Of a stretch of DNA of 64,000 nt, positions 32,635 to 51,753 are shown piece by piece. The first letter of the stretch is position 1. Every line of letters starts with the position of its first letter. A program made the translations under genes and the position numbers. The stretch comes from an uncultured virus (IMG/VR IMGVR_UViG_3300030372_005500) (lineage: Duplodnaviria; Heunggongvirae; Uroviricota; Caudoviricetes), in the IMG/VR virus record IMGVR_UViG_3300030372_005500. The stretch is one strand, 5' to 3'. The notes below the pieces were generated by a model, which had not been told where the DNA came from, did not search any database, and was given only the letters and a program-made list of their open reading frames with translations.

Positions 32635-32690
32635 TGTGCAAATACTGTGAAAGCGGACACGATTATTTGTGGGAGAATTGCGATGCCTAA
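32634..32690 (+). CDS. Cys/His micropeptide MCKYCESGHDYLWENCDA
   Basis: TAATG-coupled, CxxC..H..C pattern. Confidence 0.35.
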   Translation: MCKYCESGHDYLWENCDA

Positions 32691-35809: not shown

Positions 35810-36268
35810 ATGAATAAAATAAGTAGCAGTAAGCCAAGAGTACGTAGCTCTAAAGTAAATATGGCAGGTAATTATACCAAGCCTAAATTGAGGAAGAATT
35901 TATTTTTTAAAATAAAGTCTGGAAGCAAAGGCGGTTCTGCAGGACAATGGTCCGCACGTAAAGCTCAGTTACTAAGTAAGCAATATGAATCAGCAGGAGG
36001 TGGCTATTCTATGGGTGTTAAGAAATCACAAAAATCACTAAGAAATTGGACTGATGAAAATTGGGATTATGTAACCAAGTCAGATAGTAAAAAGCCTAAA
36101 TCTAAAAGAGGCAGATATTTACCTAAAGAAGTCAGGATGAACTTAACTCCATCTGAAAAGAAAATAACTAATATGAAAAAAAGAAAGGCAGGCGGAGTAG
36201 GAACCAGAGTAAGTTATTCGAAGAATATAGCTAAGATGGTAAATCAAACAAGGAGTTCTAAAAAATGA
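35810..36268 (+). CDS. DUF5872-like basic viral protein
   Basis: YTKP.LR...GSKGG..GQWSARKAQ....Y...GGGY and L..WT.E.W...RYLP motifs. Confidence 0.65.
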   Translation: MNKISSSKPRVRSSKVNMAGNYTKPKLRKNLFFKIKSGSKGGSAGQWSARKAQLLSKQYESAGGGYSMGVKKSQKSLRNWTDENWDYVTKSDSKKPKSKRGRYLPKEVRMNLTPSEKKITNMKKRKAGGVGTRVSYSKNIAKMVNQTRSSKK

Positions 36269-36918
36269 GTAAAATAAAATTCAAGCTCTCTTCAGAGAGT
36301 AAGCCGAGCGTGCTAAAGCCCACCTTCTACGTTAAGGAGGAAATAGGTACAGTTCCTGTTAAACAAAAAAAGACTTTTTACAAGGGAGTAAGGATAACAA
36401 ATAAATTATCTGATGACTTAGGACTTCCTAAACAGGCAAAGCAGGGTGCGAAGGAGATATTCAGAAGATATAGTAATTCTGGAGCTATGCAAGGGCGTAA
36501 GACAGAAGATTCTGCGGTAGCAAGTGTTTATCTTGCAGCAAGGCAAGCTAATTTCCCAAGAAGTTTAGATGCAATAAGTAAGAAGAGCGATATATCTAAA
36601 GTAAGAATAAGTAGGGCTGCTAAATCAATTAACAAATCTCAGAAACTTGCAATAAAGCCTCCTGCAGCACCAGAACTTATAGGAGCTGCAGCATCAAAAC
36701 TTAAGTTAAGGCCACAACAGACAAGTAAATCAATAACTAAAGCAAATACATATTTCACAAAAGGTTTCGCAGGAAGTTCTGCACCAAGTTCTGTAGCAGC
36801 AGTAGCAGTTTATAATTCGAGCGATAAGACTCAAAAGCAAGTTTCAGCTGCATTTGGTATAAGTGAAACAACACTAAGAAACACCAGGAAGAGAATAATG
36901 AAAAATGGAGGTAAATAG
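36265..36918 (+). CDS. tfb: TFIIB/TFB core-like protein (two cyclin folds plus C-terminal HTH, no Zn-ribbon)
   Basis: LSDDLGLP..AKEIFR..QGRK.E..AVASVYLAARQ..FPRSLD.I; second repeat ending KTQKQVSAAFGISETTLRN (TFB BRE-binding HTH pattern). Confidence 0.8.
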   Translation: MSKIKFKLSSESKPSVLKPTFYVKEEIGTVPVKQKKTFYKGVRITNKLSDDLGLPKQAKQGAKEIFRRYSNSGAMQGRKTEDSAVASVYLAARQANFPRSLDAISKKSDISKVRISRAAKSINKSQKLAIKPPAAPELIGAAASKLKLRPQQTSKSITKANTYFTKGFAGSSAPSSVAAVAVYNSSDKTQKQVSAAFGISETTLRNTRKRIMKNGGK

Positions 36919-39703: not shown

Positions 39704-39704
39704 C

Positions 39705-39904
39705 TTAAAAAAGCACCTTTATATACTACTTATACCTATATAAGGGTAGAGACAAAGTTTGAGTATTTTACTTGTAATTCCTACTTATTAGGGCCTCTCA
39801 AAAGGAGGTAGTTCCGATTTGGAAGGGTTACATATGATTTTTAGGAGTCTTACTGATTATTTTGCGTGATTAATCAGGCTTAAAGAGAGTTATAGTAATT
39901 ATTC
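39705..39904 (+). promoter_or_regulatory. Intergenic control region with TATA-like boxes upstream of the hairpin-punctuated array
   Basis: TTTATATA at about 39718 after an A-rich BRE-like run; TTAAAG at about 39880, about 25 nt before the first hairpin. Confidence 0.4.
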
Positions 39905-39975
39905 CCATATTCTTCGGAATATGGCGGTTCGGGGGTAGCGACCTGAGTCGTTAGTACGCAATAAGTTAGCGCAGT
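39905..39975 (+). ncRNA. Structured 5' leader of the array
   Basis: CCATATTC-TTCG-GAATATGG hairpin (39905-39924) followed by a GU-rich stem (about 39923-39952). Confidence 0.4.
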
Positions 39976-40003
39976 AGGCCTTCGGGCCTTCAGGTGAAAA
40001 ACC

Positions 40004-40258
40004 ATGTTTAACATACAAACAGCAATAATAGCAACATGTCTATCACTAATTGGACTAATATTAGCCCACGTTAGTGTGACAGTAGAACCAAGCATAGCAA
40101 CAGCAGCAGGAATATTTTGGCTAATAAATGCCTTCGCCCTGGTGCTAAACATAATGCTAACGCCATTTACACCATTGGCATCAGTAACAGCATGCTTTAA
40201 TTGGATAAATCTCCAAATTTTAGCATACTATTGTGATGGTCATGGAGTGGTGTGGTAG
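40004..40258 (+). CDS. Small membrane protein (2-3 TM)
   Basis: 84 aa hydrophobic; element plus AGGTGA SD upstream. Confidence 0.7.
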   Translation: MFNIQTAIIATCLSLIGLILAHVSVTVEPSIATAAGIFWLINAFALVLNIMLTPFTPLASVTACFNWINLQILAYYCDGHGVVW

Positions 40259-40288
40259 AAGGGCCTTCGGGCCGTCAGGTGAAAAACC

Positions 40289-40426
40289 ATGGATAAAAAT
40301 AAAATAAAAGAAACCAGAAATAAATATTTGACTCCTTTTGAATTAAAGGAGTTTAAGCAATTGAGAGATTGTAAGGGCCTTCGGGCCGTCATCTGTAATC
40401 ACATCCAGGGCCGTAGGGGTGTGTAG
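40289..40426 (+). CDS. 45 aa hypothetical peptide
   Basis: Element plus AGGTGA SD upstream; reads through the 40376 element. Confidence 0.4.
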   Translation: MDKNKIKETRNKYLTPFELKEFKQLRDCKGLRAVICNHIQGRRGV

Positions 40427-40441
40427 ATCAAGGCCCATCAG

Positions 40442-40801
40442 ATGAGTGAAACACTAATATCAACAAGATGTGTAGAATGTGGCTCAGACACAGTGAAGGA
40501 CGGATATGTGAATAGATGTTCTTACAGTGGTGAAGGTATTGACGCATATAATTGTGGACAATGCCAATCAGCATTAGAATACTACGTTTTTGGGGACTCA
40601 GCATATGAAGATACTGAGACTTACGAAGAAGTAGAAGCAATAGACCATGCAAGGGAAAATGACCCTGATTGGGCTGAAAAACATTGTGACGAAGAGAGCT
40701 ATGAAAAATATCTTGAAGAAAGAATAGAAGAAATAGATAAACAAGACCCAGGTGCAAAACCTTTCAGAGAATTGGTTCAGAGCATTTGGGCAAGGGCTTA
40801 G
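40442..40801 (+). CDS. Zn-ribbon-like acidic protein
   Basis: CVECG and CGQC pairs; element upstream. Confidence 0.7.
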   Translation: MSETLISTRCVECGSDTVKDGYVNRCSYSGEGIDAYNCGQCQSALEYYVFGDSAYEDTETYEEVEAIDHARENDPDWAEKHCDEESYEKYLEERIEEIDKQDPGAKPFRELVQSIWARA

Positions 40802-40819
40802 GCCTGTCAGGTGAAAACC

Positions 40820-41047
40820 ATGGTATCGACAAAATACAAAAAGAATTTCCAGAAAATGGAATTAAAGAAGTTTGGGATATTCAATCCTAAATGGAGCGAG
40901 CCGTTGGAAGTATTTCCAACGCATCAAAAAGCATCAGAAGCACTTATAGATGCCTTTGACCACAGATCAAGGAACTGTATGTGCACAGATTGCTTACAAA
41001 GTGGGATACACGAACCAGAAGTGTGCGTGATACTCCCCGTGGCCTAA
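40820..41047 (+). CDS. Small Cys-containing hypothetical protein
   Basis: CMCTDC; ATG 40820 after GGTGA (or in-frame GTG 40811). Confidence 0.65.
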   Translation: MVSTKYKKNFQKMELKKFGIFNPKWSEPLEVFPTHQKASEALIDAFDHRSRNCMCTDCLQSGIHEPEVCVILPVA

Positions 41048-41099
41048 GGGCCGTCATGTTTTTATATTATTTCGCAGTATATTATAATAGAGCAATCAT

Positions 41100-41393
41100 A
41101 TGGTAAATTTCAATAGAGAAAAAAGAAGCTCAAAACAAATAGATAGACGAGAAGCGAGAAAACTGAAGCTAAGGCTCTTTAGAGTCCATGCGGAGAGTGT
41201 TCAATTACCGTTTATTCTCGTTTGGGCAAAAACAAAAGATGATGCATTAGATTGGGCAAAGCAACAGCCAATAGATGATTGGTATGAGCACGAAACTAAG
41301 CCTCATTTTGTACAGGAACACCAGGCAGAGTTAATTGAGCATGTAAATGACTTAGTTAGCAAAGGTCAGAAAGTTCCAAAGGCAGGGGAGTAA
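41100..41393 (+). CDS. Hypothetical protein
   Basis: 97 aa; ATC-AT-ATG start context; stop in the next hairpin loop. Confidence 0.7.
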   Translation: MVNFNREKRSSKQIDRREARKLKLRLFRVHAESVQLPFILVWAKTKDDALDWAKQQPIDDWYEHETKPHFVQEHQAELIEHVNDLVSKGQKVPKAGE

Positions 41394-41402
41394 TCCCGTC
41401 AC

Positions 41403-41552
41403 ATGAGCGAGAAAACAGCACTTTTTTTTGCTACAATAGATGGATTCGATGATAATAAGTTAGGAAAATTATCAGAAGAAATTGAAGATGTAGGAAAAAA
41501 ATATGGAGTAAAAATTTGGTTGGATGCAGTAATAGAGGCACCAACAGAATAG
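41403..41552 (+). CDS. 49 aa hypothetical protein
   Basis: Bounded exactly by two elements; not in ORF track. Confidence 0.65.
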   Translation: MSEKTALFFATIDGFDDNKLGKLSEEIEDVGKKYGVKIWLDAVIEAPTE

Positions 41553-41569
41553 GGGCGTAAGCCCGTCAG

Positions 41570-41794
41570 ATGAAAGTAAGAGAACTAATAGAAGAGCTTG
41601 AATGCTATCCAGATGATTTGGAAGTCAAATTGGCACATCAGCCAAATTGGCCTTTTCAATATTCAATTGGTGATGTAGTTGAAGCTAAATTAGATGACGA
41701 AGACCCAAGTAAAGGAAACGCAGTGTTTATTGGTGAATGTGAACAAGAAGAATATTTACCATATTCTGCAAGTTGTGCATTGGGTTGGAAATAG
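41570..41794 (+). CDS. Small viral protein (MKVRELIEELE.YP.D.EV type)
   Basis: 74 aa, bounded by elements. Confidence 0.75.
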   Translation: MKVRELIEELECYPDDLEVKLAHQPNWPFQYSIGDVVEAKLDDEDPSKGNAVFIGECEQEEYLPYSASCALGWK

Positions 41795-41811
41795 GGGCTT
41801 AAGCCCGTCTT

Positions 41812-42000
41812 ATGAGAGAATTAAACGAAATCTGCGTTATTCCTGAGGGAATGTTAGCAAGGATGAGAAGACTTAGAGCAGATTGGAAAGCAACAGAGAT
41901 TATGCATGAAACAGAAGACCGCCCAATGATGGTAATGTATTATAAGGGCAAGATTCATGCAATTGACCAATTGATTGAAGTCTTAGGAGAAGGGGTGTAA
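41812..42000 (+). CDS. Hypothetical protein
   Basis: 62 aa, bounded by elements. Confidence 0.7.
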   Translation: MRELNEICVIPEGMLARMRRLRADWKATEIMHETEDRPMMVMYYKGKIHAIDQLIEVLGEGV

Positions 42001-42044
42001 ACCCGTCAGATGTTGCAGGTTGGTCTCACCCTGCACTCTATCAT

Positions 42045-42110
42045 ATGGCAAAAAAAACATGTAGAGATTGTCCTAACAATGGATGCCCAAGGTGTCCAGT
42101 GGAGGGATAA
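42045..42110 (+). CDS. Cys-rich micropeptide MAKKTCRDCPNNGCPRCPVEG
   Basis: ATC-AT-ATG context, two CxxC, TAATG-coupled to 42110. Confidence 0.5.
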   Translation: MAKKTCRDCPNNGCPRCPVEG

Positions 42111-42325
42111 TGGTCGAATTAGATGATTTGAGAGTAGAACTGATAAGCATAATAGCTGAAATCAGGGCTGACCCAATACCAGAGCAAATGGATAAACATT
42201 TTAAGTTGCACAAAAATTCTGTGCAATTTGGTTTAGACAGGGCTGTGACAATCATTGATTCCGTTATTGAAGCGGTTATAGCTAACGATAATGAATTGAA
42301 TGATGATGGGACATATGGGCTTTAG
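42110..42325 (+). CDS. Hypothetical protein
   Basis: Likely start ATG 42110 after GGAGG; stop in hairpin loop. Confidence 0.65.
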   Translation: MVELDDLRVELISIIAEIRADPIPEQMDKHFKLHKNSVQFGLDRAVTIIDSVIEAVIANDNELNDDGTYGL

Positions 42326-42334
42326 GGCCCTCAT

Positions 42335-42682
42335 ATGGGAACAAGATGTAACATAAAAGTGACTGATGGTCATGATACATTATGGTTCTATAGGCACTGG
42401 GATGGTTATCCATCTGCAGTAGAGCCAAGTTTAGAACCACTAATGGAGAAGTTAAAAGAAGGTAAACTTAGGACCAATGTAGGTCAGTTTGCTGGTTGGT
42501 TAACTATAATTGGACATGAGGAAGCTGGAAATCCTAAAATGGGTGAAGCATGGAAATGTGGAAACTATGAGCCTACAACAGGCGAGCATGGTGACATTGA
42601 ATATCTATACACTATAGATCTAAAGAATAAAACATTACATTGTTTAGATTTATATGAATCCAAAAGAGGAATGTGGGCCTGA
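42335..42682 (+). CDS. Conserved viral hypothetical protein (MGTR...Y.HWDGYP...HGDIEY.Y type)
   Basis: Motif pattern common in phage early regions; bounded by elements. Confidence 0.75.
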   Translation: MGTRCNIKVTDGHDTLWFYRHWDGYPSAVEPSLEPLMEKLKEGKLRTNVGQFAGWLTIIGHEEAGNPKMGEAWKCGNYEPTTGEHGDIEYLYTIDLKNKTLHCLDLYESKRGMWA

Positions 42683-42694
42683 GAAGGCCGTCAT

Positions 42695-42943
42695 ATGGAA
42701 CAAGAATTAGTAGACATAGATAAGTTACAAAAAAGGTTATTGAAAAAGAATGGATGCGGTATACAAGGCCCAGGGAATGGAGGATGGCCTTGCAATAGTT
42801 GTTTCCACGCAATGGAAATACCTGGATTGAAACAAGATATACACGACTATTGGTTAGCAGTATTAGCTGTAAGAGGCGATTATGAGTGGGTTGAACCCAA
42901 TCATGAACTAATAGAAGAGTTATATCATGCATTAGGGGCTTAG
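42695..42943 (+). CDS. Hypothetical protein (C..WPC..CFH)
   Basis: 82 aa, bounded by elements. Confidence 0.7.
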   Translation: MEQELVDIDKLQKRLLKKNGCGIQGPGNGGWPCNSCFHAMEIPGLKQDIHDYWLAVLAVRGDYEWVEPNHELIEELYHALGA

Positions 42944-42952
42944 GCCCGTCTT

Positions 42953-43510
42953 ATGCCAAATTGGTGCGAAAATTCAACAAAGATTGAAGGAAAGAAAGAG
43001 ATAGTCTTAGACTTTCTCAAAGCAATAGGAAACGGAGATACAGATAGCGAGATGTGTTTCGACTTCGACAAGATATTACCTGTTCCTGAAGAATTCCAAG
43101 GAGTTCATGAAGGCAATACCACAATAGATGGTAAGCAGGTAACATATTGGAGAGAAGTTGGTACCAATCAAATCGCAATCAGTAACTCTGAGATCAACCG
43201 ATTAACCAAGAAATATGGTTCTTTCGGATGGTATAACTGGTCAATAGAAAACTGGGGGACCAAATGGCCTCCAAGTGAGACCTTTGCAAGGACATATGAT
43301 TTAGATGAAGACTATGGCGTGCATATAGATTATGACACGGCTTGGTGCCCTCCAACGGGGATTCTAAAGAAATTACAGGCAGATTGGCCTGAATTAAATA
43401 TCCGAACAAAATGGCGTGAGGAAGGTATGGGCGAAGAAGGATTGATTAAATTTAATCCAGATGGTTCAGCCAACTCAGAGTCTTACACAAGAAGTATAGA
43501 TGACTGGTAG
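42953..43510 (+). CDS. DUF1281/YubB-type ferredoxin-like domain protein
   Basis: MPNWCEN, FDFDKILPVP, WYNW..ENWGTKW, (F/Y)DTAW.PP motifs. Confidence 0.75.
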   Translation: MPNWCENSTKIEGKKEIVLDFLKAIGNGDTDSEMCFDFDKILPVPEEFQGVHEGNTTIDGKQVTYWREVGTNQIAISNSEINRLTKKYGSFGWYNWSIENWGTKWPPSETFARTYDLDEDYGVHIDYDTAWCPPTGILKKLQADWPELNIRTKWREEGMGEEGLIKFNPDGSANSESYTRSIDDW

Positions 43511-43527
43511 GGGCGAAAGCCCGTCTT

Positions 43528-43758
43528 ATGACATATAGAATAGTTATAACAAGAAACGGAGATTATGTAGCAGGACAAGCAAACAGATTAGACAATCTGG
43601 TAAAAAGCTTTAAGTTAGATGACGAAGAAGAATTTCTCGAATGTGTAGGAGAAATGCAGAGTTTATCTGATTATAGCCTGCAAGAGATATTTTATGCATC
43701 AGAGCATGAAAAGGAGACTTTTAATCTGACAAAATATCTCAGCAACAAGGGGGATTAG
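43528..43758 (+). CDS. Hypothetical protein
   Basis: 76 aa, bounded by elements. Confidence 0.7.
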   Translation: MTYRIVITRNGDYVAGQANRLDNLVKSFKLDDEEEFLECVGEMQSLSDYSLQEIFYASEHEKETFNLTKYLSNKGD

Positions 43759-43767
43759 CCCCGTCAA

Positions 43768-44511
43768 ATGGTATTAAAAGTAACCAGAAAAAGCGGCAAT
43801 ACGAAGACAGGACCGATTGCCGTAACAAATAGGTCTGGAAAGCAAAACATTTTTGGAACTTGCCCAGATAGTTGTAAGTTGATGTTACCTGGTCACAAAG
43901 GTAGTGATGAGGTCGATGTCGATTATCTTACGGCATTAAGAAAGGCAGTCCCAGAAAAAGGCAAGGCGTGGACTTATACCCACTCCATAGCTTTTAGAAG
44001 GCGATTTAGGCCAAGTAGAGAAGGAGAGACCTGTATAAATTCATCATGTGATACCATTGATGATATTTTGGATGCCCAAGATAGAGGACATCCAAGTGTG
44101 ACAGTAATACCTGAGCAAGGAGCAACTGAATTTATTCGGAAGCTTCGAGGTAAAGGGATAAAAATAGGAATCTGTCCAGCACAGTTAAAGAAAGATATGA
44201 CCTGTTCTAATTGTGGTGGTGCAAGTGGACCTTGGTGTTCAATGCATGACCGCCACTTTACAGTGGGATTTTTATCTCACGGAACAGGAAAGAAGCAAGC
44301 AGAAGACTGTGAAAAACAAGGAGGTTGTTATGCAGCCTACTTTAGGACAAGATGGCAATGGGATAAATTAGCCCTAAAAGAAGAATCTAAACAAACCGAT
44401 GGAGAAAAACTCCTTGAGTTTGCAGAAACTTTACCAGAAGGTAGTTTACTACGTCACCATGTCGTCGGTGATATGATGAAGGACACAAAATCTCGGCACT
44501 TCGAGTGCTGA
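43768..44511 (+). CDS. Cys-rich phage protein (Gp88-like)
   Basis: SGN.KTGPI.VT, TCP.SC, WTYTH, CPAQ....TC..C, CYA, LRHHV.GD motifs. Confidence 0.6.
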   Translation: MVLKVTRKSGNTKTGPIAVTNRSGKQNIFGTCPDSCKLMLPGHKGSDEVDVDYLTALRKAVPEKGKAWTYTHSIAFRRRFRPSREGETCINSSCDTIDDILDAQDRGHPSVTVIPEQGATEFIRKLRGKGIKIGICPAQLKKDMTCSNCGGASGPWCSMHDRHFTVGFLSHGTGKKQAEDCEKQGGCYAAYFRTRWQWDKLALKEESKQTDGEKLLEFAETLPEGSLLRHHVVGDMMKDTKSRHFEC

Positions 44512-44531
44512 GTGGGGCTTCGGCCCGTCAT

Positions 44532-44693
44532 ATGGATATAAAAGAAATTAAATATATAAACAAGGAATTGAATGGAAAAGATATAGAGGCTATATCAGAG
44601 ATTATTCATGAAGCCTTAGTTGAAAAAGAAATTAGTTATGAATCATTTAGCTATGAGATACACGTTAGCTATAATGAACTAAATGGGGAGTAA
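44532..44693 (+). CDS. 53 aa acidic hypothetical protein
   Basis: Start reassigned to ATG 44532 after the element. Confidence 0.65.
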   Translation: MDIKEIKYINKELNGKDIEAISEIIHEALVEKEISYESFSYEIHVSYNELNGE

Positions 44694-44702
44694 TCCCGTC
44701 AT

Positions 44703-44846
44703 ATGGAAACTAAAAATAAGGAGTCATGTTCACATGACCACCGAATAACAAGAATTAGTTGGAAAGATAATTACTCAATTTCTGAATGTCAGAAATGTAA
44801 AATAGTATGGAATGAAGAGACTGGTGAAGTTATTAAAAGGCCTTAA
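44703..44846 (+). CDS. 47 aa Zn-finger-like microprotein (C.H...C..C)
   Basis: Bounded by elements; not in ORF track. Confidence 0.65.
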   Translation: METKNKESCSHDHRITRISWKDNYSISECQKCKIVWNEETGEVIKRP

Positions 44847-44855
44847 GGCCATCAT

Positions 44856-45791
44856 ATGAGTTTAAAAGATGAGCTGATAGCATATCTGGCAGACCCTAAA
44901 ACGCTAAAGGATATTTATCCAGCATTTAGAAATGTTAAACCTTCCACAATTAGAGGAAGATTAAACGAGAATGTTGGTAAATGCTTCAAACGTGTTACAC
45001 GTGGAGTATACTTAGCAACAAAAGGGAATAGCCAATGTGTTATCATCGAAGGAGACGCATGGGATAAGATCAAGGATTTTGAGGATGATTCAATAGATGT
45101 AATCATCACAGACCCACCTTACTCATGCTTGGACCAGCAAATGAAAGTCGGTTCAACACGAAAGCGTAATCTTAATCGTGGCTGGAAATTTGATACAAAG
45201 GATTTTGATTCAGAATTACTGAATCATTTCTATAGAGTATTGAAGCCAAAAGGTCACTTCTATACGTTTTTACCTGCAATAGCTCATGATACAGTTGAGT
45301 ATAATGAACAGATTAGAAAATTAGCTATAGATTGTGGATTTTATTTTCACAAGATAGCTATTTGGGATAAAGGTCATATGGGAATGGGTTACCATTTCCG
45401 TAATAGACATGAAACAATATACTTCTTTTCAAAGGGGTATGTTGGGGCAAAAGATTTGCCTATGACGTATGCTGATAATGGTTCAAGACTGTGTTTAACA
45501 AAACCCGATGTTTTGAAACACACGAGACCACATCATACGAAGAAAATACATGAGACCGAGAAACCAGTTCAATTACTCGTTGATATCTTAGAGTATTGCA
45601 CTAAGCCAGGCGATGTAGCTCTGGACCCTTTCGGGGGTTCTTTGAGTTTAGCTTTGGCATGTATGGAAACTAAGACAAATGCAATAGTGATTGAAAAGGA
45701 CAAAGAAATGGTCCAAAAGGGAATACAGCGTGTGGCGGCACACGCCCCTTCAGATGAAAACGAAACGAACCGCATGGTTCGGCTTCAATAA
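44856..45791 (+). CDS. N6-adenine/N4-cytosine DNA methyltransferase (beta class) with N-terminal HTH-like extension
   Basis: IITDPPY catalytic motif, H.TEKP..L, VALDPFGGS SAM-binding motif. Confidence 0.88.
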   Translation: MSLKDELIAYLADPKTLKDIYPAFRNVKPSTIRGRLNENVGKCFKRVTRGVYLATKGNSQCVIIEGDAWDKIKDFEDDSIDVIITDPPYSCLDQQMKVGSTRKRNLNRGWKFDTKDFDSELLNHFYRVLKPKGHFYTFLPAIAHDTVEYNEQIRKLAIDCGFYFHKIAIWDKGHMGMGYHFRNRHETIYFFSKGYVGAKDLPMTYADNGSRLCLTKPDVLKHTRPHHTKKIHETEKPVQLLVDILEYCTKPGDVALDPFGGSLSLALACMETKTNAIVIEKDKEMVQKGIQRVAAHAPSDENETNRMVRLQ

Positions 45792-46449
45792 CATCAAAAC
45801 GCTATACAATGGACAGCTAAAGGTATTGGACCTATTCTCTGGTTTAGAGGGTTGGTCACAAGCTTTTAGAGACAGAGGTCATGATGTATTAACTTTGGAT
45901 AGTGATCCAAGGTTTGATTCTGACATCTGTATAGACATAAGGGAATTTAGTACATTACAACTTCCCTGGAAGCCAGATATAATTCTGGCATCACCGCCTT
46001 GCAACGCATTTTCTGTTGCAAGCATAGGAAAACATTGGGGTGGTGGCAAGAGAGCTTATGTGCCTAAATCAGAAGGTGCAAAGCTTGGTATCGAATTAGT
46101 AGAACATACTAAAGATTTGATACAAGCCATAGACCCATATTTCTTTGTGATAGAAAACCCAAGAGGTTTACTAAGGAAATTAGGACTTCTTGATGAGTTT
46201 GAAAGGCATACGGTGACATATTGTCAATACGGAGAGACAAGAATGAAACCTACGGATCTCTGGGGTGGTTTTCCACCCAGTTTGAAGTTAAAGGACCCAT
46301 GTAAGAATGGTGCTCCTTGTCATGAAGCTGCTCCAAGAGGAGCAAGAACTGGCAGTCAAGGCTTGAATAAGTTTGAGAGTGCCAAAATACCGTATAAATT
46401 AGCTGAAGCCGTTTGTATAGCCGCAGAAAAGGATAGAAGCCGAACGTAA
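45754..46449 (+). CDS. C5-cytosine DNA methyltransferase-like protein (short form)
   Basis: VLDLFSG, ASPPC, IENP motifs; likely start ATG 45754 after an extended element. Confidence 0.8.
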   Translation: MKTKRTAWFGFNNIKTLYNGQLKVLDLFSGLEGWSQAFRDRGHDVLTLDSDPRFDSDICIDIREFSTLQLPWKPDIILASPPCNAFSVASIGKHWGGGKRAYVPKSEGAKLGIELVEHTKDLIQAIDPYFFVIENPRGLLRKLGLLDEFERHTVTYCQYGETRMKPTDLWGGFPPSLKLKDPCKNGAPCHEAAPRGARTGSQGLNKFESAKIPYKLAEAVCIAAEKDRSRT

Positions 46450-46564
46450 ATCGGTTTATTGATACTGATAAGTCTCGTAAACGATACGTTTGGTTTAAAT
46501 ACATCCTAACACTATATATTAATGAGGATAACGGGGAGTTCATGGTGGTCTCCCCCTCAATCAG

Positions 46565-47680
46565 ATGAGTGAAGAAAAAACTGTCTCTTTAAAAAAAGAG
46601 ACATTTGAAAGCATAGTGGACCTTGCCTCAGAATTAGAGAGGCAGGGAGGCAGCAAGTTAGACCTTGTTGTAGATCCAAGAAACCTATCTGCAGAGGTTG
46701 TCACAGACGGTGACAAATCTCAAGTAGTAGTTAATGTGCCAGATAATGGAACTTTTCCATTAACTGACCATGCACATGCACAAGTAAGTGATAAGCTGAA
46801 AATCCCAAAGCGGTATTATGACCGCATGAAGGATAGCAAGCCTGATTTACTTTGTGAAAATGTAAATGAATGGCTACAGGAGGATACTCCAAGACTTCTA
46901 AGAATTCTTGAAGTATTTCCAGGTGATGGGCTCAAAATAAGAGCCTTTTTATCTGACAGGTATAGAGTTCTGGATAATCACGGATTGCTTGGAGCATCGT
47001 TACAGGCTTTACAAGGCATCAAAGAGAAAGGAACTGATGTCGATATAGTCAGGACGAGTTTAACAGAAACAAACATGTATATCAAAGCCCGTTCACCCAG
47101 TTTGGGTGTGGACTTTGGTGAAAGAGGTGAAGTACACCCAGGAATTATTATCTCTAATTCAGAGGTAGGTTCTGGTGGAGTAAAAGTATCTCCCTTTTTC
47201 TATTTCTTAGCATGTTCAAACGGATTAATATCCGAACAAAAGTTCGGTAAAATCCATTTGGGTAGCAAGTTAGAATTAGGAGAACTTGTTTCACAGCAGA
47301 CTCAAAATTTAGAGGATGCAGCAGTTTGGAGTTCTATAAACGACCTGATAAGCGGCACATTTGATGCCGATGGCTTTGACGTGCTTATGAAACAACTGAA
47401 AGCGACTACCGAAAGGGAAGTTCTAAATCCAGTTGAAGCAGTCAACAACGTGGTTAAAGAATTCAAACTACCTGAAGGACACATGGATACACTCCTTAGT
47501 GAGTTCTCTACATCAAGAGACTACACACAATGGGGTTTGTTCAATGCCGTAACTGCAGTCGGTAAGACTGTTGGCGGTGAGAACCAACGTGTAGAATGGG
47601 AAAAGACAGGCGGCAAAATAGCCGTCATGGATGGGGGTCAATTCGAGAGATTGGCACCTCTTCCTGAAAATGGGGCGTAA
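46565..47680 (+). CDS. DUF932-like protein
   Basis: L.IP..YYDRM, RAFLSDRYR.LDN, G..ISNSEVG.G...V......CSNG, T.WGL.NAVT motifs. Confidence 0.7.
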   Translation: MSEEKTVSLKKETFESIVDLASELERQGGSKLDLVVDPRNLSAEVVTDGDKSQVVVNVPDNGTFPLTDHAHAQVSDKLKIPKRYYDRMKDSKPDLLCENVNEWLQEDTPRLLRILEVFPGDGLKIRAFLSDRYRVLDNHGLLGASLQALQGIKEKGTDVDIVRTSLTETNMYIKARSPSLGVDFGERGEVHPGIIISNSEVGSGGVKVSPFFYFLACSNGLISEQKFGKIHLGSKLELGELVSQQTQNLEDAAVWSSINDLISGTFDADGFDVLMKQLKATTEREVLNPVEAVNNVVKEFKLPEGHMDTLLSEFSTSRDYTQWGLFNAVTAVGKTVGGENQRVEWEKTGGKIAVMDGGQFERLAPLPENGA

Positions 47681-47764
47681 GCCCGTCAAATGGGCATATA
47701 GCACACTTGTGTGAAGACTGATTGGTGAAGCATTCTTAACATAACCTCACACAAGGCCCTTCAT

Positions 47765-48133
47765 ATGGCTTGGACAGCAAAAAACAATGAAGAAATCGAC
47801 GCATATATTAAAAAAAGTAACCTAACAATAAATACGAAAGATACTAAATTTCTATATTGTAGGCCACGAAATGTAGTTGAAGCAGAGAAAAGAAGACTTA
47901 ATTTATTAAATAGATTAGAAGAGATCATTAGATGTTCTAAAAAGTTGATAGATGAAAATATAATTCGTTCTCAGCTTTCAGCTATGAGATATATACATGC
48001 TGGAGATGAAAAAGGAAGAACAGAGGCGATTAAATTTGATGAAATTGTAAAATCAGATGAACGCCTTATAAGAATATGCAAAGAGCTTATAGATATAGCT
48101 AACAAAAAGCATAATTCAAAAAAGGGGAAGTAA
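47765..48133 (+). CDS. Hypothetical protein
   Basis: 122 aa, bounded by elements. Confidence 0.7.
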   Translation: MAWTAKNNEEIDAYIKKSNLTINTKDTKFLYCRPRNVVEAEKRRLNLLNRLEEIIRCSKKLIDENIIRSQLSAMRYIHAGDEKGRTEAIKFDEIVKSDERLIRICKELIDIANKKHNSKKGK

Positions 48134-48143
48134 TTCCCGTCGT

Positions 48144-48329
48144 ATGAAAGAATTTACAAATAAAATATCAGAATTGTTTTATGGTGAGACACATGAAGAT
48201 GCAATTAATAATAATACTTGCGTAATATGCAAGGATAAAGTAACAAAATTTAAAGATGAAGTTAGTATGAGAGAATACAAGATTTCAGGATTTTGTCAAA
48301 AGTGTCAAGATGAAACATTTGGGGCGTAA
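48144..48329 (+). CDS. Zn-finger microprotein (CVIC...EY.ISG.CQ.CQD..F)
   Basis: 61 aa, two CxxC. Confidence 0.75.
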   Translation: MKEFTNKISELFYGETHEDAINNNTCVICKDKVTKFKDEVSMREYKISGFCQKCQDETFGA

Positions 48330-48338
48330 GCCTCTCTT

Positions 48339-48566
48339 ATGAGTAAAGAAGTAGTAACAGGAAAACTATTTGAAGAACACATTTGTGGATGCAAGGTATA
48401 TGTTTTAGAAACCATAAGCAGCAATCCTACAAGAAATTATGTAAATGAATTATGTCATTATCATGATGAATATGTAGGAAGTTCTATACGAGATATGGAA
48501 AACGACCCAAGTAATTACGAGGGCATAGATGGCTGCGAATGGGCAGATAAACTTGCACAAGAATAG
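48339..48566 (+). CDS. Small Cys/His protein
   Basis: 75 aa; CGC..C..H. Confidence 0.7.
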   Translation: MSKEVVTGKLFEEHICGCKVYVLETISSNPTRNYVNELCHYHDEYVGSSIRDMENDPSNYEGIDGCEWADKLAQE

Positions 48567-48600
48567 AAAGAGATAAAAATGTGCCTATACTGGCACTCAG

Positions 48601-48981
48601 ATGAGCAAAGCAAAAGCAAGTCCACAGCATCCTAAGTGGAGCGTCTTAGATGACGCACCCAGGGGAAGGCAAGTTTTGGTTGATATTGGATTATCCAAAT
48701 CACCCAAAGAATCTAAGACTAACTACGGTTTTGGACAATGGGACGGTGAGATCATACATTTATGGTCAGCACCAGAGATTCATTCTTTAGTTCTTATTAG
48801 AACTAAGCAATGGACAATCGACATGGTTGAAACCGTTATGGAAAGATACACTGCGACTTTCAAGACAATCAATGATGATATAGAGTCATATGATTTTCAA
48901 GAAGTCATTGCAGAAGAGTTAGTTCAGTGGGATAGTATCCCAGCAAGGCCAGTACCTCGACCAGAGGCTCTGGAAGAATAG
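48601..48981 (+). CDS. Hypothetical protein
   Basis: 126 aa, bounded by elements. Confidence 0.7.
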   Translation: MSKAKASPQHPKWSVLDDAPRGRQVLVDIGLSKSPKESKTNYGFGQWDGEIIHLWSAPEIHSLVLIRTKQWTIDMVETVMERYTATFKTINDDIESYDFQEVIAEELVQWDSIPARPVPRPEALEE

Positions 48982-48998
48982 GGGCGAAAGCCCGTCAT

Positions 48999-49277
48999 AT
49001 GAAATTGAAAGAATTAAAAATAGAAATCAATGATGCAATAGAAATGAAAGATGTAGTAACATTAGCATATCTGAATAATGAGCATCACGACCTTATAGCA
49101 ACTGAATTAAATAATTTTGATTCAGCGCATCTTGAAGAGTTAACAACCAAAATGGAGAATTTTGATGTAGACTCGGCAAGATTGAGCTATAAAGAAGTGG
49201 AAGAGTATTATTCTAAAAGTAAAAAAGATGCATTAACTATCTTGAATGAATTTGCCTCAAAAGTTGGTTTAGAATAG
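48999..49277 (+). CDS. Acidic helical hypothetical protein
   Basis: 92 aa, bounded by elements. Confidence 0.7.
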   Translation: MKLKELKIEINDAIEMKDVVTLAYLNNEHHDLIATELNNFDSAHLEELTTKMENFDVDSARLSYKEVEEYYSKSKKDALTILNEFASKVGLE

Positions 49278-49294
49278 GGCCTGAGGGCCGTCAT

Positions 49295-49447
49295 ATGGAA
49301 GAAGATGAAAGAAAATGCTTTACCTGTGGTTGGGTTGGAGATTATGGAGAATTCATGCTAATAAATGAAGGGTATGAATGCTTAGAATGTTCAGAAAAAA
49401 ACAGGACAGAGTATGAAAACAGGAAATGGGGCGACATAAATGCCTAA
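49295..49447 (+). CDS. 50 aa Zn-finger microprotein (CFTCGW...CLEC)
   Basis: Bounded by elements; not in ORF track. Confidence 0.7.
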   Translation: MEEDERKCFTCGWVGDYGEFMLINEGYECLECSEKNRTEYENRKWGDINA

Positions 49448-49468
49448 CCTGGGCCTTCGGGCCATCTT

Positions 49469-49633
49469 ATGAGTGAAAAAGAATTAAATGCTTTCAAAGA
49501 TGGTGTTGCAAATGCACTATTAGAAGGCAAGGTAAATGAAGACTTAAAAGACAAATATTGTAGACATAGTTATAAACAAGGCTATGACTTTGGTTTAACT
49601 ATGTATTGTAGATATAATGAATTAGATAAATAA
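49469..49633 (+). CDS. 54 aa hypothetical protein (Y.QGYDFG)
   Basis: Bounded by elements; not in ORF track. Confidence 0.65.
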   Translation: MSEKELNAFKDGVANALLEGKVNEDLKDKYCRHSYKQGYDFGLTMYCRYNELDK

Positions 49634-49651
49634 AGGCCTAAGGGCCATCAG

Positions 49652-50053
49652 ATGAATAAGGAACAAACATTAGATTATTGGGCTTCATTGGAGCCTGATG
49701 AGCCTATGCTACCACGTCCTATACGTCCAGACCACAAAGGGTCTACCTACACCTGTGATTCAATTAGAATAACAGGAAGTAGAGCGTATATTGATAGTTG
49801 GTTAGGCAACAATAAGTGGCTATTGGAAAGAGAGAACCATAAAACTCGGCTACAAGTCACATACAAGGAGACTGTTGATAGAGATACAGGACTTCCGACA
49901 GGAAAATACAGTTTTTACTGTCAAGTATGGGCAAGAAGTAAGGCCTTGAATAATTATTCAAGAGCAGTACGCAAGGAGCCAGAGATAACTGTAGATCTCA
50001 AACCAATGCAGAGCCACAAAAGTTTAAAGGAGTTAGCTAATAGCTTCTTATGA
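49652..50053 (+). CDS. Hypothetical protein
   Basis: 133 aa, element upstream. Confidence 0.7.
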   Translation: MNKEQTLDYWASLEPDEPMLPRPIRPDHKGSTYTCDSIRITGSRAYIDSWLGNNKWLLERENHKTRLQVTYKETVDRDTGLPTGKYSFYCQVWARSKALNNYSRAVRKEPEITVDLKPMQSHKSLKELANSFL

Positions 50054-50081
50054 ACGGAACAGGGGGCGAGAGTCCCGTCAG

Positions 50082-50234
50082 ATGAGCATATTAACAATTA
50101 TATTGACTTGCGCTGTAATAATAGCGATTGGAATTCCAATTGTATTACACCAAGCAGGCAGATTGAAAGCTGTCGCAGAATCAAAATATGGAAAGAACTG
50201 GAGGCGATATGATGTTTCGGATAATAGAGAATAA
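50082..50234 (+). CDS. 50 aa single-TM protein
   Basis: Element upstream; MSILTIILTCAVIIAIGIPIVL. Confidence 0.6.
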   Translation: MSILTIILTCAVIIAIGIPIVLHQAGRLKAVAESKYGKNWRRYDVSDNRE

Positions 50235-50346
50235 TAAGGTAATATTTGAAACGGATAATATTAATAAATTAATAGAGTATATGGAAAGAAATGAAGAGAC
50301 ATATAATCCAAAATTTATATCGTCCACTGCATCCAGACACAGATAA
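50209..50346 (+). CDS. 45 aa hypothetical peptide
   Basis: GGAGG SD; stop abuts the 50347 element. Confidence 0.5.
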   Translation: MMFRIIENNKVIFETDNINKLIEYMERNEETYNPKFISSTASRHR

Positions 50347-50363
50347 GGCCTTACGGCCATCTT

Positions 50364-50609
50364 ATGAAAAAATACAGATTTTGGTTTCACTACAATAAAC
50401 CAGAGAGTCGTAAAACTGGGAAACCAGTTATGACGGTTCATTACAGAGACCGATGTATTATGGCAGATAATATTGAATGTAATGTAGAAACCGAGACGCA
50501 TAGGCGTAAGAGACAACCTTACATGGTAATCAGAGGTTGGGCAGAGAGCGTTAAAATACGGATAGATTCAACACTTGATTATCAACACGGTGATGTAGTG
50601 ATCAACTAA
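50364..50609 (+). CDS. Small viral protein (FWFHYNKP......MTVH....C type)
   Basis: 81 aa, bounded by elements. Confidence 0.7.
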   Translation: MKKYRFWFHYNKPESRKTGKPVMTVHYRDRCIMADNIECNVETETHRRKRQPYMVIRGWAESVKIRIDSTLDYQHGDVVIN

Positions 50610-50626
50610 GTGCCTTCGGGCATCAT

Positions 50627-50839
50627 ATGGCAAAAGATTTTGAAGTAAGCTTTGTAGAAACAAGTTGGTATTCAACAACAATAATTAGATTGAGTAACAA
50701 TGAATACGAAGAAGCAATAAAGAACGACAACCTAAATGAAGTATTACAAGAGTTATATTGGGATGACACATCTCCTCCTGAGATAACAGATACAACAAAA
50801 CCTGAATACTTCATAGAAGAGGTTGAAAAAGCAGAATAG
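50627..50839 (+). CDS. Acidic hypothetical protein
   Basis: 70 aa, bounded by elements. Confidence 0.7.
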   Translation: MAKDFEVSFVETSWYSTTIIRLSNNEYEEAIKNDNLNEVLQELYWDDTSPPEITDTTKPEYFIEEVEKAE

Positions 50840-50856
50840 GGCCTTCGGGCCATCTT

Positions 50857-51099
50857 ATGGATATAAATGAAAAACGTTGGCTAACTAAAATTAAAAAACA
50901 ATTAGTCGGTAAAACAATAGTAAAAATAGAATACATGCACGAAGATGTAGTAGAAACCAATATGTGGTCTTCAAGACCCATATGTATACTATTAGATGAT
51001 GGTAATTGGATTTATCCAATGTGTGATGACGAAGGTAATAATGGCGGAGCCATGGGAACTACCTTTGAAGATTTACAGACAATACCTGTATTCTATTAG
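50857..51099 (+). CDS. Small viral protein (L.GKTI..I.Y....DDEGN.GG type)
   Basis: 80 aa, bounded by elements. Confidence 0.7.
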   Translation: MDINEKRWLTKIKKQLVGKTIVKIEYMHEDVVETNMWSSRPICILLDDGNWIYPMCDDEGNNGGAMGTTFEDLQTIPVFY

Positions 51100-51116
51100 G
51101 GGCGAAAGCCCGTCAT

Positions 51117-51428
51117 ATGGAAATAAATGAATTAATAGACAAAAGACAGAATTTAGAAGAACAGTTAAAAGAAATCAATAGAAACATAGAGAAGGAAACA
51201 ACTAAGACAAAGCCAAAACAGTACAATGTAAACTTTGTTTTAGGTGTTAACTGCAATATGATTGTTTTAGCACATTCTAAAACTGAAGCAAAAGAAATAA
51301 TAGACGAATTTGTAGAAGATGTTCAGTTTTCAGGAGAACTGCATGACCAAGATTTTGAGGATACAGTAGAAGACGGATATTATGAAAAGTCAGAAGGCGA
51401 TAAGCCTCAATATTTATTTCTTGAATAA
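51117..51428 (+). CDS. Acidic hypothetical protein, last gene of the array
   Basis: 103 aa, element upstream, terminator downstream. Confidence 0.7.
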   Translation: MEINELIDKRQNLEEQLKEINRNIEKETTKTKPKQYNVNFVLGVNCNMIVLAHSKTEAKEIIDEFVEDVQFSGELHDQDFEDTVEDGYYEKSEGDKPQYLFLE

Positions 51429-51430
51429 GA

Positions 51431-51468
51431 GCCCTGTCACAGGAAACACCTGTGATGGGGTTTTTTTT
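51431..51468 (+). terminator. Stem-loop plus T8 terminator
   Basis: CCCTGTCACAGG-AAACA-CCTGTGATGGGG-TTTTTTTT. Confidence 0.75.
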
Positions 51469-51488
51469 ATTTTGAAAATCGCTAATCA

Positions 51489-51525
51489 GGCCCTATCAGG
51501 CAAACAACCTGGTAGGGCTTTTTTT
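51489..51525 (+). terminator. Second stem-loop plus T-tract terminator
   Basis: GCCCTATCAGG-CAAACAA-CCTGGTAGGGC-TTTTTTT. Confidence 0.75.
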
Positions 51526-51534
51526 ATTTTTATA

Positions 51535-51570
51535 GAAAGTATTTATACGGTTCCCAGCTATTAAAAAATA
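51535..51570 (+). promoter_or_regulatory. Putative BRE-TATA promoter for a leaderless transcript
   Basis: GAAAGTATTTATAC about 22 nt upstream of ATG 51571. Confidence 0.5.
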
Positions 51571-51753
51571 ATGTTCGAGAGTGTTATTGATTCATTGACC
51601 TCAATTTTGGTTGTCTTTTGCTTAATGATGATTTCACTATATGCAGGCTTCATAATGGGTCTGAAAAAGAAAGTGGATCTACTGACAGACGGATATATTT
51701 CAGGCCTGGAAGAAGAGAATAAAAGGTTGAGAAGTGAAAAAAGAAAAAGCTGA
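51571..51753 (+). CDS. Small single-TM protein
   Basis: 60 aa, hydrophobic N-terminal half. Confidence 0.65.
   Translation: MFESVIDSLTSILVVFCLMMISLYAGFIMGLKKKVDLLTDGYISGLEEENKRLRSEKRKS

Follow-up and report, generated by a model that had tools for sequence, protein, structure and literature searches.

In animal mitochondria, Ojala and colleagues are said to have described in 1981, transcripts are punctuated by tRNAs. The early RNA of phage T7 is cut by RNase III inside long (about 20 bp or more), irregular duplexes at five to ten sites, giving leaders that contain a Shine-Dalgarno (SD) sequence, and CRISPR repeat hairpins are cut by Cas6-family enzymes at a fixed place on their 3' side, which leaves ligatable 2',3'-cyclic phosphate and 5'-OH ends. 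Tuerk and colleagues reportedly found C(UUCG)G and GNRA hairpins between phage genes in 1988, in the intercistronic regions of T4. Here we describe 35 hairpin-TC elements in the uncultured Caudoviricetes record IMGVR_UViG_3300030372_005500, all of them on the + strand at 39977-51119 of the window (by which we mean the whole 64,000-nucleotide stretch of DNA that was analysed). We propose, with a probability of roughly 0.5, that these elements are punctuation signals at which a long + strand transcript is cut into single-gene messages. They lie in the following block:

39905..51530, + strand, whole co-oriented block of about 34 genes and 35 elements, with two terminators at its end

Archaeal bulge-helix-bulge (BHB) and bulge-helix-loop (BHL) sites are cut by EndA and the pieces circularised by an RNA ligase; two sources name tRNA and rRNA precursors and two mRNAs (cbf5 and the HVO_1309 5' untranslated region, UTR) as substrates (PMC7714728, PMC12397907), and one of them places the EndA cut between the second and third nucleotide of the bulge (PMC12397907). 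Circles inside protein genes of archaea have been observed, without an explanation being given (PMC3326292). The promoter early stem-loop (PeSL) cassettes of T4-type phages carry a strong sigma-70 promoter and a terminator stem-loop and give rise to DNA mini-circles between neighbours (PMC2839356). A preliminary description of the present locus, made from the sequence alone, knew of no named element with its consensus, and none came to light here: a scan of both strands of the whole window at Rfam 15 gathering scores gave no match, a full-text search of the literature (supplements aside) found no description of such an element, and the words hairpin and stem-loop are absent from the marine archaeal-virus literature examined. 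We rate the element as a proposed intercistronic RNA processing signal, a variant for which no published description was found.

In its compact form the element consists of a G+C stem of 4-5 bp and a loop of 4 nt (rarely 5-6), followed by R-T-C-N-N-ATG. The preliminary description had counted 29 compact and about 7 extended copies, which is close; our catalogue of the window divides into 25 compact copies right before an ATG (class 1), two compact copies with no ATG behind them (class 2; 40376, 41041), three copies of the form hairpin-GTC/TTC-AGGTGA(SD)-ATG (class 3; 39977, 40262, 40794) and five long or offset hairpins that retain (R/T)TC-NN-ATG (class 4; 40408, 42013, 45734, 46533, 47692). 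The five copies quoted there as examples all lie where they had been placed. Compact stems have 4 bp in 18 of 25 cases and can be extended to 5 bp in 7 of 25. The strict pattern GGSCNNNNGSCCRTCNNATG, with at most one mismatch, matched 16 times against 0.08 expected, always on the + strand and inside the block, and none of 100 shuffles reached that count. Similarly, a covariance model (R1) built from 28 copies gave 33 matches in the window at E<=1, all on the + strand within 39974-51119; in the whole window it found no copy outside the block and none on the - strand, in agreement with the earlier remark that no copies had been noticed outside it.

The claim of a covarying stem with G-U pairs also held. 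In an alignment of 27 distinct copies, C-G stands at the third stem pair 15 times and G-C 12 times, with no copy unpaired there, and 93.3% of stem cells are paired, compared with 81.4% in shuffles, a level that was matched in 0 of 500 shuffles. The G-U pairs occur on the + strand only. Note that two sub-families (GGGC/GCCC followed by G, and GGCC/GGCC mostly followed by A) make up much of the covariation, which thus counts copies and not independent events. Selection on shape is supported by the other stems (GGGAA/TTCCC, GGCCT/AGGCC, GTGCC/GGCAC and GGGG/CCCC) and by the hairpins in front of orthologous genes in a close relative, L002, whose stems differ but whose shape is kept. Loops are often UUCG or GNRA, as had been noticed: of the 30 loops listed, 12 are GNRA and 7 UNCG. 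The hairpin was present in the minimum free energy or centroid fold of all eight compact contexts tested, in a window that is A-rich on the + strand and has 38% G+C.

The TC lies at -4/-3 in 30/30 element-led starts, compared with 1/27 starts outside the block, consistent with the reported near-invariance of the TC and of the 5-nt gap between stem and start codon. An SD-like 5-mer precedes only 2/30 element-led genes and 10/27 genes outside the block, which reproduces the contrast drawn earlier between the two sets; moreover, both SD-like words before element-led genes are the hairpin's own GGGAG. The second genes of two-gene units (ATG 42110 and 50209) both have GGAGG(G), lack an element and overlap the end of the first gene. 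Because element-led genes go without an SD and element-less second genes have one, the element occupies the position of a ribosome-binding site. Among the compact copies, 9 of 25 have the upstream stop codon right against the stem and 11 have it in or at the loop, while in the rest it is 4-17 nt off, so that a unit cut at the elements would have almost no UTR. Motif, structure, placement and SD pattern are all direct observations.

Parts of the block are carried by 20 public runs, spread over 14 studies of marine or aquatic origin. We drew the RNA evidence from two metatranscriptome runs (X6, X18) of one sample, which is also the likely source, over the region 39500-52000, and the DNA comparison from two runs (X3, X4) of other samples, all four taken as assembled contigs. 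Five joints that go back from a downstream to an upstream position were found in X6/X18 and none in X3/X4:

41400->41123, run X6, back-joint with an ambiguity of 1
43518->42944, runs X6 and X18, back-joint corresponding to a 575-nt circle
49464->49291, run X18, back-joint corresponding to a 174-nt circle
50620->50358, runs X6 and X18, back-joint corresponding to a 263-nt circle
51114->50944, run X6, back-joint with an ambiguity of 0

With ambiguity recomputed, all five donor ends fit an RNA that terminates right behind the C of RTC; the agreement is exact for 51114 and within one base for 41400. In three joints the acceptor fits the first N of the nearest upstream element, each such circle being one complete gene unit, and each of the five joints stays inside its own gene unit. 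For 49464->49291 and 50620->50358 the partner is the adjacent element despite better-matching elements elsewhere, and 41400->41123 and 51114->50944 have no homology at the joint and an acceptor that is not at an element. The choice of neighbours as partners, together with the two joints that lack homology, argues against homology-driven chimeras and for intramolecular events. Note that template jumps during library preparation would still need RNA ends at these places, so that RNA would end at the elements even then. RNA depth is 0 at 39500-40333 and at 51593-52000, where the DNA runs have a depth of 3.4-6.2, and it is uneven within the block, unlike that of the DNA runs. (The first of these stretches covers the first two genes, and a hole in contig cover proves nothing.)

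The RNA joints lend support, of an indirect quality, to the first function that had been offered for the elements, namely that they are cut to convert a polycistron into near-leaderless monocistronic mRNAs; that the cut is made in cells, how the ends are built chemically, that translation is leaderless and which nuclease and ligase act are inferences. In the mechanism that we propose, a long + strand transcript would carry in each unit a very stable small hairpin followed by a single-stranded R-U-C, and an endoribonuclease would cut just after the C (RTC^NN), at times one base later. Each unit so released would read NN-AUG...stop-hairpin-RUC, with a protective 3' hairpin and a 2-nt leader; such a leader is in effect leaderless and would thus need no SD, which makes the second function that had been offered, SD-independent initiation or reinitiation, compatible with cutting. 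A cut at RTC^NN would account for the fixed 5-nt spacing and the missing ribosome-binding sites, as well as for the SD of the second genes, which could not use the cut route and would retain it, and for the three copies that have an SD behind the cut site. The ends would be ligatable by a cellular RNA ligase, and part of the units would become single-gene RNA circles.

The placement of the elements is also what translational coupling alone would give, with the hairpin and TC-NN-AUG serving SD-independent termination-reinitiation on RNA that stays polycistronic, and with the back-joints being artefacts. Termination-reinitiation at close stop/start pairs was reportedly described for archaea and bacteria by Huber and colleagues in 2019, and here the stop codon lies no more than 17 nt from the stem in 25/25 compact copies and overlaps the element in 20, the AUG lies 5 nt behind the stem, and element-led genes have no SD. 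Coupling leaves unexplained, however, why 5/5 donor ends fall at RTC, two of them without homology at the joint, why joints stay within units and why the listed RNA contigs end at elements. Moreover, TC-NN-ATG is kept where no upstream gene is in reach (gene 41100 and emptied sites such as 47673). On balance, coupling by itself seems to us improbable.

If the hairpins instead served stability and shuffling, protecting 3' ends in the absence of any dedicated nuclease, the RNA ends would come from decay that stalled at them. What the block shares with T4 is extra-stable tetraloop hairpins, C(UUCG)G and GNRA, in the gaps between genes; the T4 hairpins differ in that neither a fixed TC nor a constant distance to the AUG is known for them, nor any sign of cutting or circles. 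In favour of stability hairpins are also the mosaic breakpoints at elements (see below), PeSLs being mediators of modular shuffling (PMC2839356). A stalled 3' exonuclease leaves unexplained, though, the invariant TC, the 5-nt spacing to the ATG (30/30) and the 5' ends at NN. Nor do the elements behave as promoter or terminator modules. A promoter scan gave 66 sites against 64.3 expected, with only one (41061-41088) at an element-free start, and that stretch is the only promoter-like one, no promoter lying between hairpin and ATG. Terminator-like sites were listed twice at 51427-51530 and at a single element (41039) of 35; the other elements lack a T-run and fall outside the definition of an intrinsic terminator. 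We consider this explanation less probable again than coupling.

The third function that had been offered, and rated there as less likely, was that the elements mark cassette junctions, and as an evolutionary pattern this proved true. A metagenome scan recovered the contig itself (L001) and two short close relatives with elements, L002 (4.5 kb, with 79-89% identity over the blocks in common) and L003 (1.2 kb). Positions 1420-4326 of L002 correspond to 44836-47692 of the window, a stretch that starts three bases ahead of one hairpin and reaches as far as the ATG of another, and the blocks of relatives end at elements. The gene at 50627 lies in L002 behind the DUF7227 gene, 6 kb from its place in the window, and homology to it begins at TC-AT-ATG, right behind a different hairpin. 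Missing from L002 are five genes (42110-43758) and three genes (47765-48566), and a junction in L003 (745-772) matches two elements simultaneously. In the DNA run X4, one gene plus one element (49452-49634) is missing, and the gene at 50853 (element 50840) is preceded by another hairpin and another upstream gene. Relatives thus gain, lose and move genes exactly at elements, and these mosaic breakpoints, like the RNA joints, were observed directly. We suggest that the elements would double as recombination points, since the same approximately 20 bases recur between all genes.

Six distant DUF932 loci in the metagenome scan have neither elements nor EndA; 50,697 phage records hold no near match to the window; tblastn of four window proteins against phages gave nothing for three; IMG/VR, queried with three proteins or profiles and with three DNA patterns, yielded only isolated chance matches, none of the 120 IMG/VR loci listed having more than two element-like sites; and scans of GTDB genomes with EndA and TFB profiles gave nothing.

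Gene exchange at repeated modules recalls the PeSL cassettes, which according to PMC2839356 are likewise repeated stem-loop modules between small non-essential genes, at which relatives differ and circles form. Here the reshuffling of genes by recombination at modules is seen in L002, L003 and X4. Unlike PeSLs, the elements have 5 nt between hairpin and ATG, no T-run and no promoter (coding sequence runs up to or into the stem, where a sigma-70-type promoter would have to lie), and the circles come from RNA libraries. The precedent of PeSL mini-circles, which are documented there (PMC2839356), nevertheless makes DNA circles a rival explanation of the joints: recombination of neighbouring elements, as in integron cassettes, would produce single-gene mini-circles or tandem duplications that were picked up by the RNA libraries. 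Such an origin is in keeping with the gain and loss of cassettes at elements, with the position of 3/5 joints in short homology between neighbours and with the two crossover points seen for one pair. Yet the joints occur in 2/2 RNA runs and 0/2 DNA runs, the cover of the RNA runs, unlike that of the DNA runs, drops to a depth of 0 beyond the block and varies within it, 2/5 joints have no element or homology on the acceptor side, and no integrase or recombinase was found among 64 window open reading frames (ORFs) scanned with Pfam. Because the libraries are RNA with transcript-like cover and two joints lack a second element, we hold DNA circles to be very unlikely. Finally, hairpin promoters, from which a virus RNA polymerase of the phage N4 virion type would start 3-4 nt behind each hairpin, reportedly resemble the geometry of N4 early promoters and would fit 5' ends at NN, but they can be set aside as the least credible explanation, for no RNA polymerase was found (the two giant ORFs are LamG/ConA-like lectin arrays), the G-T pairs of the + strand become A-C mismatches on the template strand, and 3' ends exactly one base before 5' ends, as well as ligatable ends, are left unexplained.

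Cutting at the elements, for its part, would resemble several of the systems with which we began. As in mitochondria, a polycistron would be cut at small structured RNAs to give mRNAs that begin at or near the AUG with almost no UTR. Unlike mitochondrial punctuation, no tRNAs are involved (ARAGORN found 0 tRNA genes in the window), the signal is a 12-14-nt hairpin plus RUC, for which RNase P or RNase Z cannot be assumed, and the setting is a prokaryotic virus with evidence pointing to circular products. T7 RNase III sites share the cutting of a phage polycistron at intercistronic hairpins, with 3' hairpins that stabilise the products; here, in contrast, the hairpin is small and there is one site per gene. 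As with CRISPR arrays, a long transcript carries a small repeated hairpin, but the repeats are not identical, stems and loops varying from copy to copy, the 'spacers' are genes of 140-1100 nt where CRISPR spacers have 25-50 nt, and the cut would fall at a distance of 3 nt from the stem. A scan of 61 window ORFs gave no cas family. Identity with integron attC sites was rejected, since the element has 19-22 nt and a perfect 4-5-bp stem, compared with an imperfect palindrome of 57-141 nt with R/L boxes, and there is no integrase match. The element thus lacks features that define BHB sites, PeSLs, CRISPR repeats, attC sites and terminators.

The likeness to BHB sites extends to a 4-bp helix followed by three single-stranded nucleotides at the proposed cut, to pieces that would appear as circles, and to an EndA homologue that is encoded 6 kb upstream of the element block. 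Unlike BHB sites, the 35 sites lie between protein genes and not inside one RNA, and the circles would carry whole ORFs. A BHL motif with an outer helix was looked for and not found in the elements: in none of 7 registers did pairing of the 5' flank with the bases behind RTC exceed that obtained with permuted partners, and G(-1):C pairs occur in only 18/27 copies. The gene in question is:

32647..33795, + strand, gene for a 382-aa two-unit tRNA-splicing-endonuclease (EndA) homologue, candidate nuclease

Its product matches the PF01974 catalytic domain at 28.9 bits (gathering threshold 27, E 1.2e-6), TIGR00324 at E 2.7e-8, below the cut-off of that model, and, by phmmer, 1a79 at E 8.6e-4. The family is tiny, with nine close relatives among 5.8 billion clusters; a library of 1.84 billion proteins gave 24 matches, of which six are family members and the rest cellular EndAs. 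In a 31-sequence alignment, His253 is invariant and Lys284 is at least 90% conserved. A first structure model from 9 sequences was set aside (predicted local distance difference test, pLDDT, 36.1). The model from the 31-sequence alignment (pLDDT 69.7) matched 5x89, 1rlv, 2gjw and 2ohc in Foldseek at E 1e-9 to 1e-7, and over residues 51-308 it aligned with two-unit EndAs (VIA) at Z 12.5-15.1, with 183-204 residues aligned and a root-mean-square deviation of 3.4-4.3 Å, the matched two-unit endonucleases being those of M. kandleri, A. fulgidus and T. acidophilum. The predicted structure points to an EndA fold of two-unit (alpha-prime type) build; note that the input alignment held cellular two-unit EndAs, which may bias the N-terminal half of the model. 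We put this protein forward as the first, tentative candidate for the nuclease, and no more firmly than that because the element is not a BHB or BHL site and the cut appears to fall after the third nucleotide. A host nuclease or an unrecognised viral nuclease is equally plausible.

The host is probably an archaeon. The main reason is the following gene, which together with the EndA homologue is evidence for an archaeal host:

36265..36918, + strand, TFIIB/TFB-like gene encoding two cyclin repeats

The TFB-like protein matches PF00382 (E 9.6e-17) and NF001658 (E 1.3e-26), has a C-terminal helix-turn-helix and lacks a zinc ribbon and a B-reader. It has only 9 close relatives, and its nearest Atlas clusters are archaeal, mostly Nitrososphaerota, which we take as a lead only. 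The protein may act as a transcription factor of the virus, or it may inhibit the TFB of the host.

Several findings weigh against cleavage at the elements, or against the enzyme and the host proposed here. The RNA evidence consists of assembled contigs from two libraries of one sample, which carry no strand, joint read counts or end chemistry, and the DNA runs with which the RNA joints were compared come from other samples. An element is bridged with at least 31 nt on both sides in 0/16 RNA and 11/16 DNA pieces (among the 32 of 129 pieces listed), but the RNA pieces are shorter than the DNA pieces, which makes this contrast a weak hint. Two of the five joints have their 5' partner inside a gene and not at an element. 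In X6, a 9-letter loose end at 49471 shifts the junction, relative to the X18 joint of the same unit, by at least one base in the 3' direction, so that either the cut is not unique or some joints are template-switch products. With respect to the enzyme, the element has one 'bulge', where a BHB site has two of 3 nt on opposite strands, with a closed tetraloop opposite and no flanking helices, and would be cut after the third nucleotide, unlike BHB sites, which EndA cuts after the second (two joints fall after the third nucleotide, 51114 exactly and 41400 with an ambiguity of 1; the other three fit either position). The catalytic Tyr is not kept in the viral EndA family: the Y241 aligned by HMMER varies, and a MAFFT alignment puts an invariant Arg238 in the EndA Tyr column. 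In addition, the EndA gene sits in a structural-looking module. As for the host, the terminators of the block look bacterial, which we counted against an archaeon, and 34509-34826 (+ strand) encodes a very basic 105-aa protein that by tblastn is 60-77% identical to proteins in 45 marine phage records (Roseobacter, Synechococcus and Prochlorococcus podophages; phrog_7595). Such likeness to bacteriophages, striking if the host is an archaeon, speaks against an archaeal host and leaves the domain of the host unsettled.

A more far-reaching version of the mechanism, which we regard as speculative and unlikely, is that a marine-archaeal virus programmes circular single-gene mRNAs: its own two-unit EndA homologue, retargeted from bulge-helix-bulge to a minimal hairpin-RUC signal, would cut the early transcript at 35 sites and a host RtcB-type ligase would close the units. 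In such a circle, stop, hairpin and start would lie within 20 nt, ribosomes could re-initiate repeatedly on a message that is proof against exonucleases, and leaderless linear mRNAs could be regained from circles by a further cut with that nuclease. Should the cut prove real, this would be the first punctuation system described for a prokaryotic virus in which a signal of 20 nt sets free almost all genes of an operon as minimal messages without a leader; it would explain how the gene block does without ribosome-binding sites, provide a processing tag that is compact and portable, made up of a 4-bp tetraloop hairpin and UC, and link RNA processing and gene shuffling at one sequence. If the circles form in the cell, they would be natural whole-ORF circular mRNAs in a prokaryotic system, a form known so far mainly from engineered constructs. 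A virus-borne splicing endonuclease would, if responsible, gain a job outside tRNA and rRNA, and its programming of circular mRNAs would be categorically new.

The elements and the terminators of the block, all on the + strand, are the following:

39977..40006, + strand, SD-extended element GGCC-TTCG-GGCC-TTC-AGGTGA-AAAACC-ATG
40262..40291, + strand, SD-extended element GGCC-TTCG-GGCC-GTC-AGGTGA-AAAACC-ATG
40376..40395, + strand, compact element with no ATG (GTC-AT-CTG), within the 3' part of gene 40289-40426
40408..40444, + strand, long-loop element GGGCC...GGCCC-ATC-AG-ATG
40794..40822, + strand, SD-extended element GGGC-TTAG-GCCT-GTC-AGGTGA-AAACC-ATG, with an in-frame GTG at 40811
41041..41060, + strand, compact element with no ATG (GTC-AT-GTT)
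41386..41405, + strand, compact element GGGA-GTAA-TCCC-GTC-AC-ATG, whose C is the 3' partner end of RNA joint 41400->41123
41553..41572, + strand, compact element GGGC-GTAA-GCCC-GTC-AG-ATG
41795..41814, + strand, compact element GGGC-TTAA-GCCC-GTC-TT-ATG
41993..42012, + strand, compact element GGGT-GTAA-ACCC-GTC-AG-ATG
42013..42047, + strand, offset element, a 6-bp hairpin TGCAGG...CCTGCA and then CTCT-ATC-AT-ATG
42317..42337, + strand, compact element GGGCT-TTAG-GGCCC-TC-AT-ATG
42676..42697, + strand, compact element GGCCT-GAGA-AGGCC-GTC-AT-ATG
42936..42955, + strand, compact element, 5' side of the 575-nt RNA back-joint 43518->42944
43511..43530, + strand, compact element, 3' side of the 575-nt RNA back-joint (X6 and X18)
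43750..43770, + strand, compact element GGGG-ATTAG-CCCC-GTC-AA-ATG
44515..44534, + strand, compact element GGGC-TTCG-GCCC-GTC-AT-ATG
44686..44705, + strand, compact element GGGA-GTAA-TCCC-GTC-AT-ATG
44839..44858, + strand, compact element GGCC-TTAA-GGCC-ATC-AT-ATG before an N6/N4 DNA methylase gene; start of the block common to L002
45734..45756, + strand, offset element GGCG-GCACA-CGCC-CC-TTC-AG-ATG within the end of the first methylase gene, before the C5 methylase
46533..46567, + strand, offset element GGGGAG...CTCCCC-CTCA-ATC-AG-ATG before a DUF932-like gene
47673..47692, + strand, compact element with only a 3-codon ORF behind it (emptied site); end of the blocks common to L002 and L003
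47692..47767, + strand, long element GGGC...(9-bp inner helix)...GCCC-TTC-AT-ATG
48125..48146, + strand, compact element GGGAA-GTAA-TTCCC-GTC-GT-ATG
48321..48341, + strand, compact element GGGGC-GTAA-GCCTC-TC-TT-ATG, with one G-U pair
48581..48603, + strand, element GTGCC-TATACT-GGCAC-TC-AG-ATG
48982..49001, + strand, compact element GGGC-GAAA-GCCC-GTC-AT-ATG
49278..49297, + strand, compact element, 5' side of the 174-nt RNA back-joint 49464->49291
49452..49471, + strand, compact element GGCC-TTCG-GGCC-ATC-TT-ATG, 3' side of the 174-nt RNA back-joint
49635..49654, + strand, compact element GGCC-TAAG-GGCC-ATC-AG-ATG
50063..50084, + strand, compact element GGGGC-GAGA-GTCCC-GTC-AG-ATG, with one G-U pair, leading a two-gene unit
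50347..50366, + strand, compact element, 5' side of the 263-nt RNA back-joint 50620->50358
50611..50629, + strand, compact element TGCC-TTCG-GGCA-TC-AT-ATG, 3' side of the 263-nt RNA back-joint (X6 and X18)
50840..50859, + strand, compact element GGCC-TTCG-GGCC-ATC-TT-ATG
51100..51119, + strand, compact element GGGC-GAAA-GCCC-GTC-AT-ATG, whose C is the exact 3' partner end of RNA joint 51114->50944
51427..51530, + strand, two strong hairpin-plus-T-run terminators closing the block, with RNA depth 0 behind them

An RNA contig (40396-40802) begins immediately 3' of element 40376. The AT-rich, promoter-like stretch at 41061-41088 is followed by gene 41100, which itself starts ATC-AT-ATG. The gene behind element 42013 (42045-42110, + strand) has 21 codons, for a mini zinc-ribbon of the form CxxC...CxxC, and is joined through a TAATG overlap by gene 42110, which is SD-led (GGAGGG); its conserved counterpart in L002 (11-79) stands behind a compact element. 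The second gene of unit 50063 (ATG 50209) is likewise SD-led (GGAGG). At the place in L002 that is equivalent to 46533, a compact element GGCC-TTCG-GGCC-ATC-AG-ATG is found.

Element 41993 is probably an emptied site, since the next element adjoins it. The arrangement of a compact element followed by a long-hairpin element occurs twice, at 41993-42047 and 47673-47767 (+ strand), with only a 3-codon or a doubtful 38-codon ORF in between, and these pairs look like emptied cassette sites. The genes for the N6/N4-type and C5-type DNA methylases (44856-46449, + strand) overlap by about 38 nt, and the element at the start of the C5 methylase is embedded in the coding sequence of the N6/N4 methylase.

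An untranslated leader (39704-39976, + strand) precedes the block; in it, a TTTATATA box follows an A-rich stretch at approximately 39710-39726, and an 8-bp hairpin with a TTCG loop lies at 39905-39924. Behind the block, at 51536-51573 (+ strand), the ATG of gene 51571 is preceded at -29 to -24 by TTTATA, which follows a purine-rich stretch; this spacing is that of an archaeal B recognition element (BRE)/TATA promoter for a leaderless mRNA. Upstream, two giant ORFs at 3794-19837 and 19834-28278 (+ strand) encode 5347 and 2814 aa with 9 and 7 LamG/ConA-like lectin domains plus beta-propellers; this lectin-repeat content ruled out an N4-type polymerase, and the products are probably giant adhesins or fibres, which would be unusual for a 73-kb virus-like contig. 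The sole clear minus-strand gene group in the window lies at 60818-62474 (- strand), and one of its proteins has weak DnaA-like/STAND NTPase similarity (phrog_5484, E 1.9e-8).

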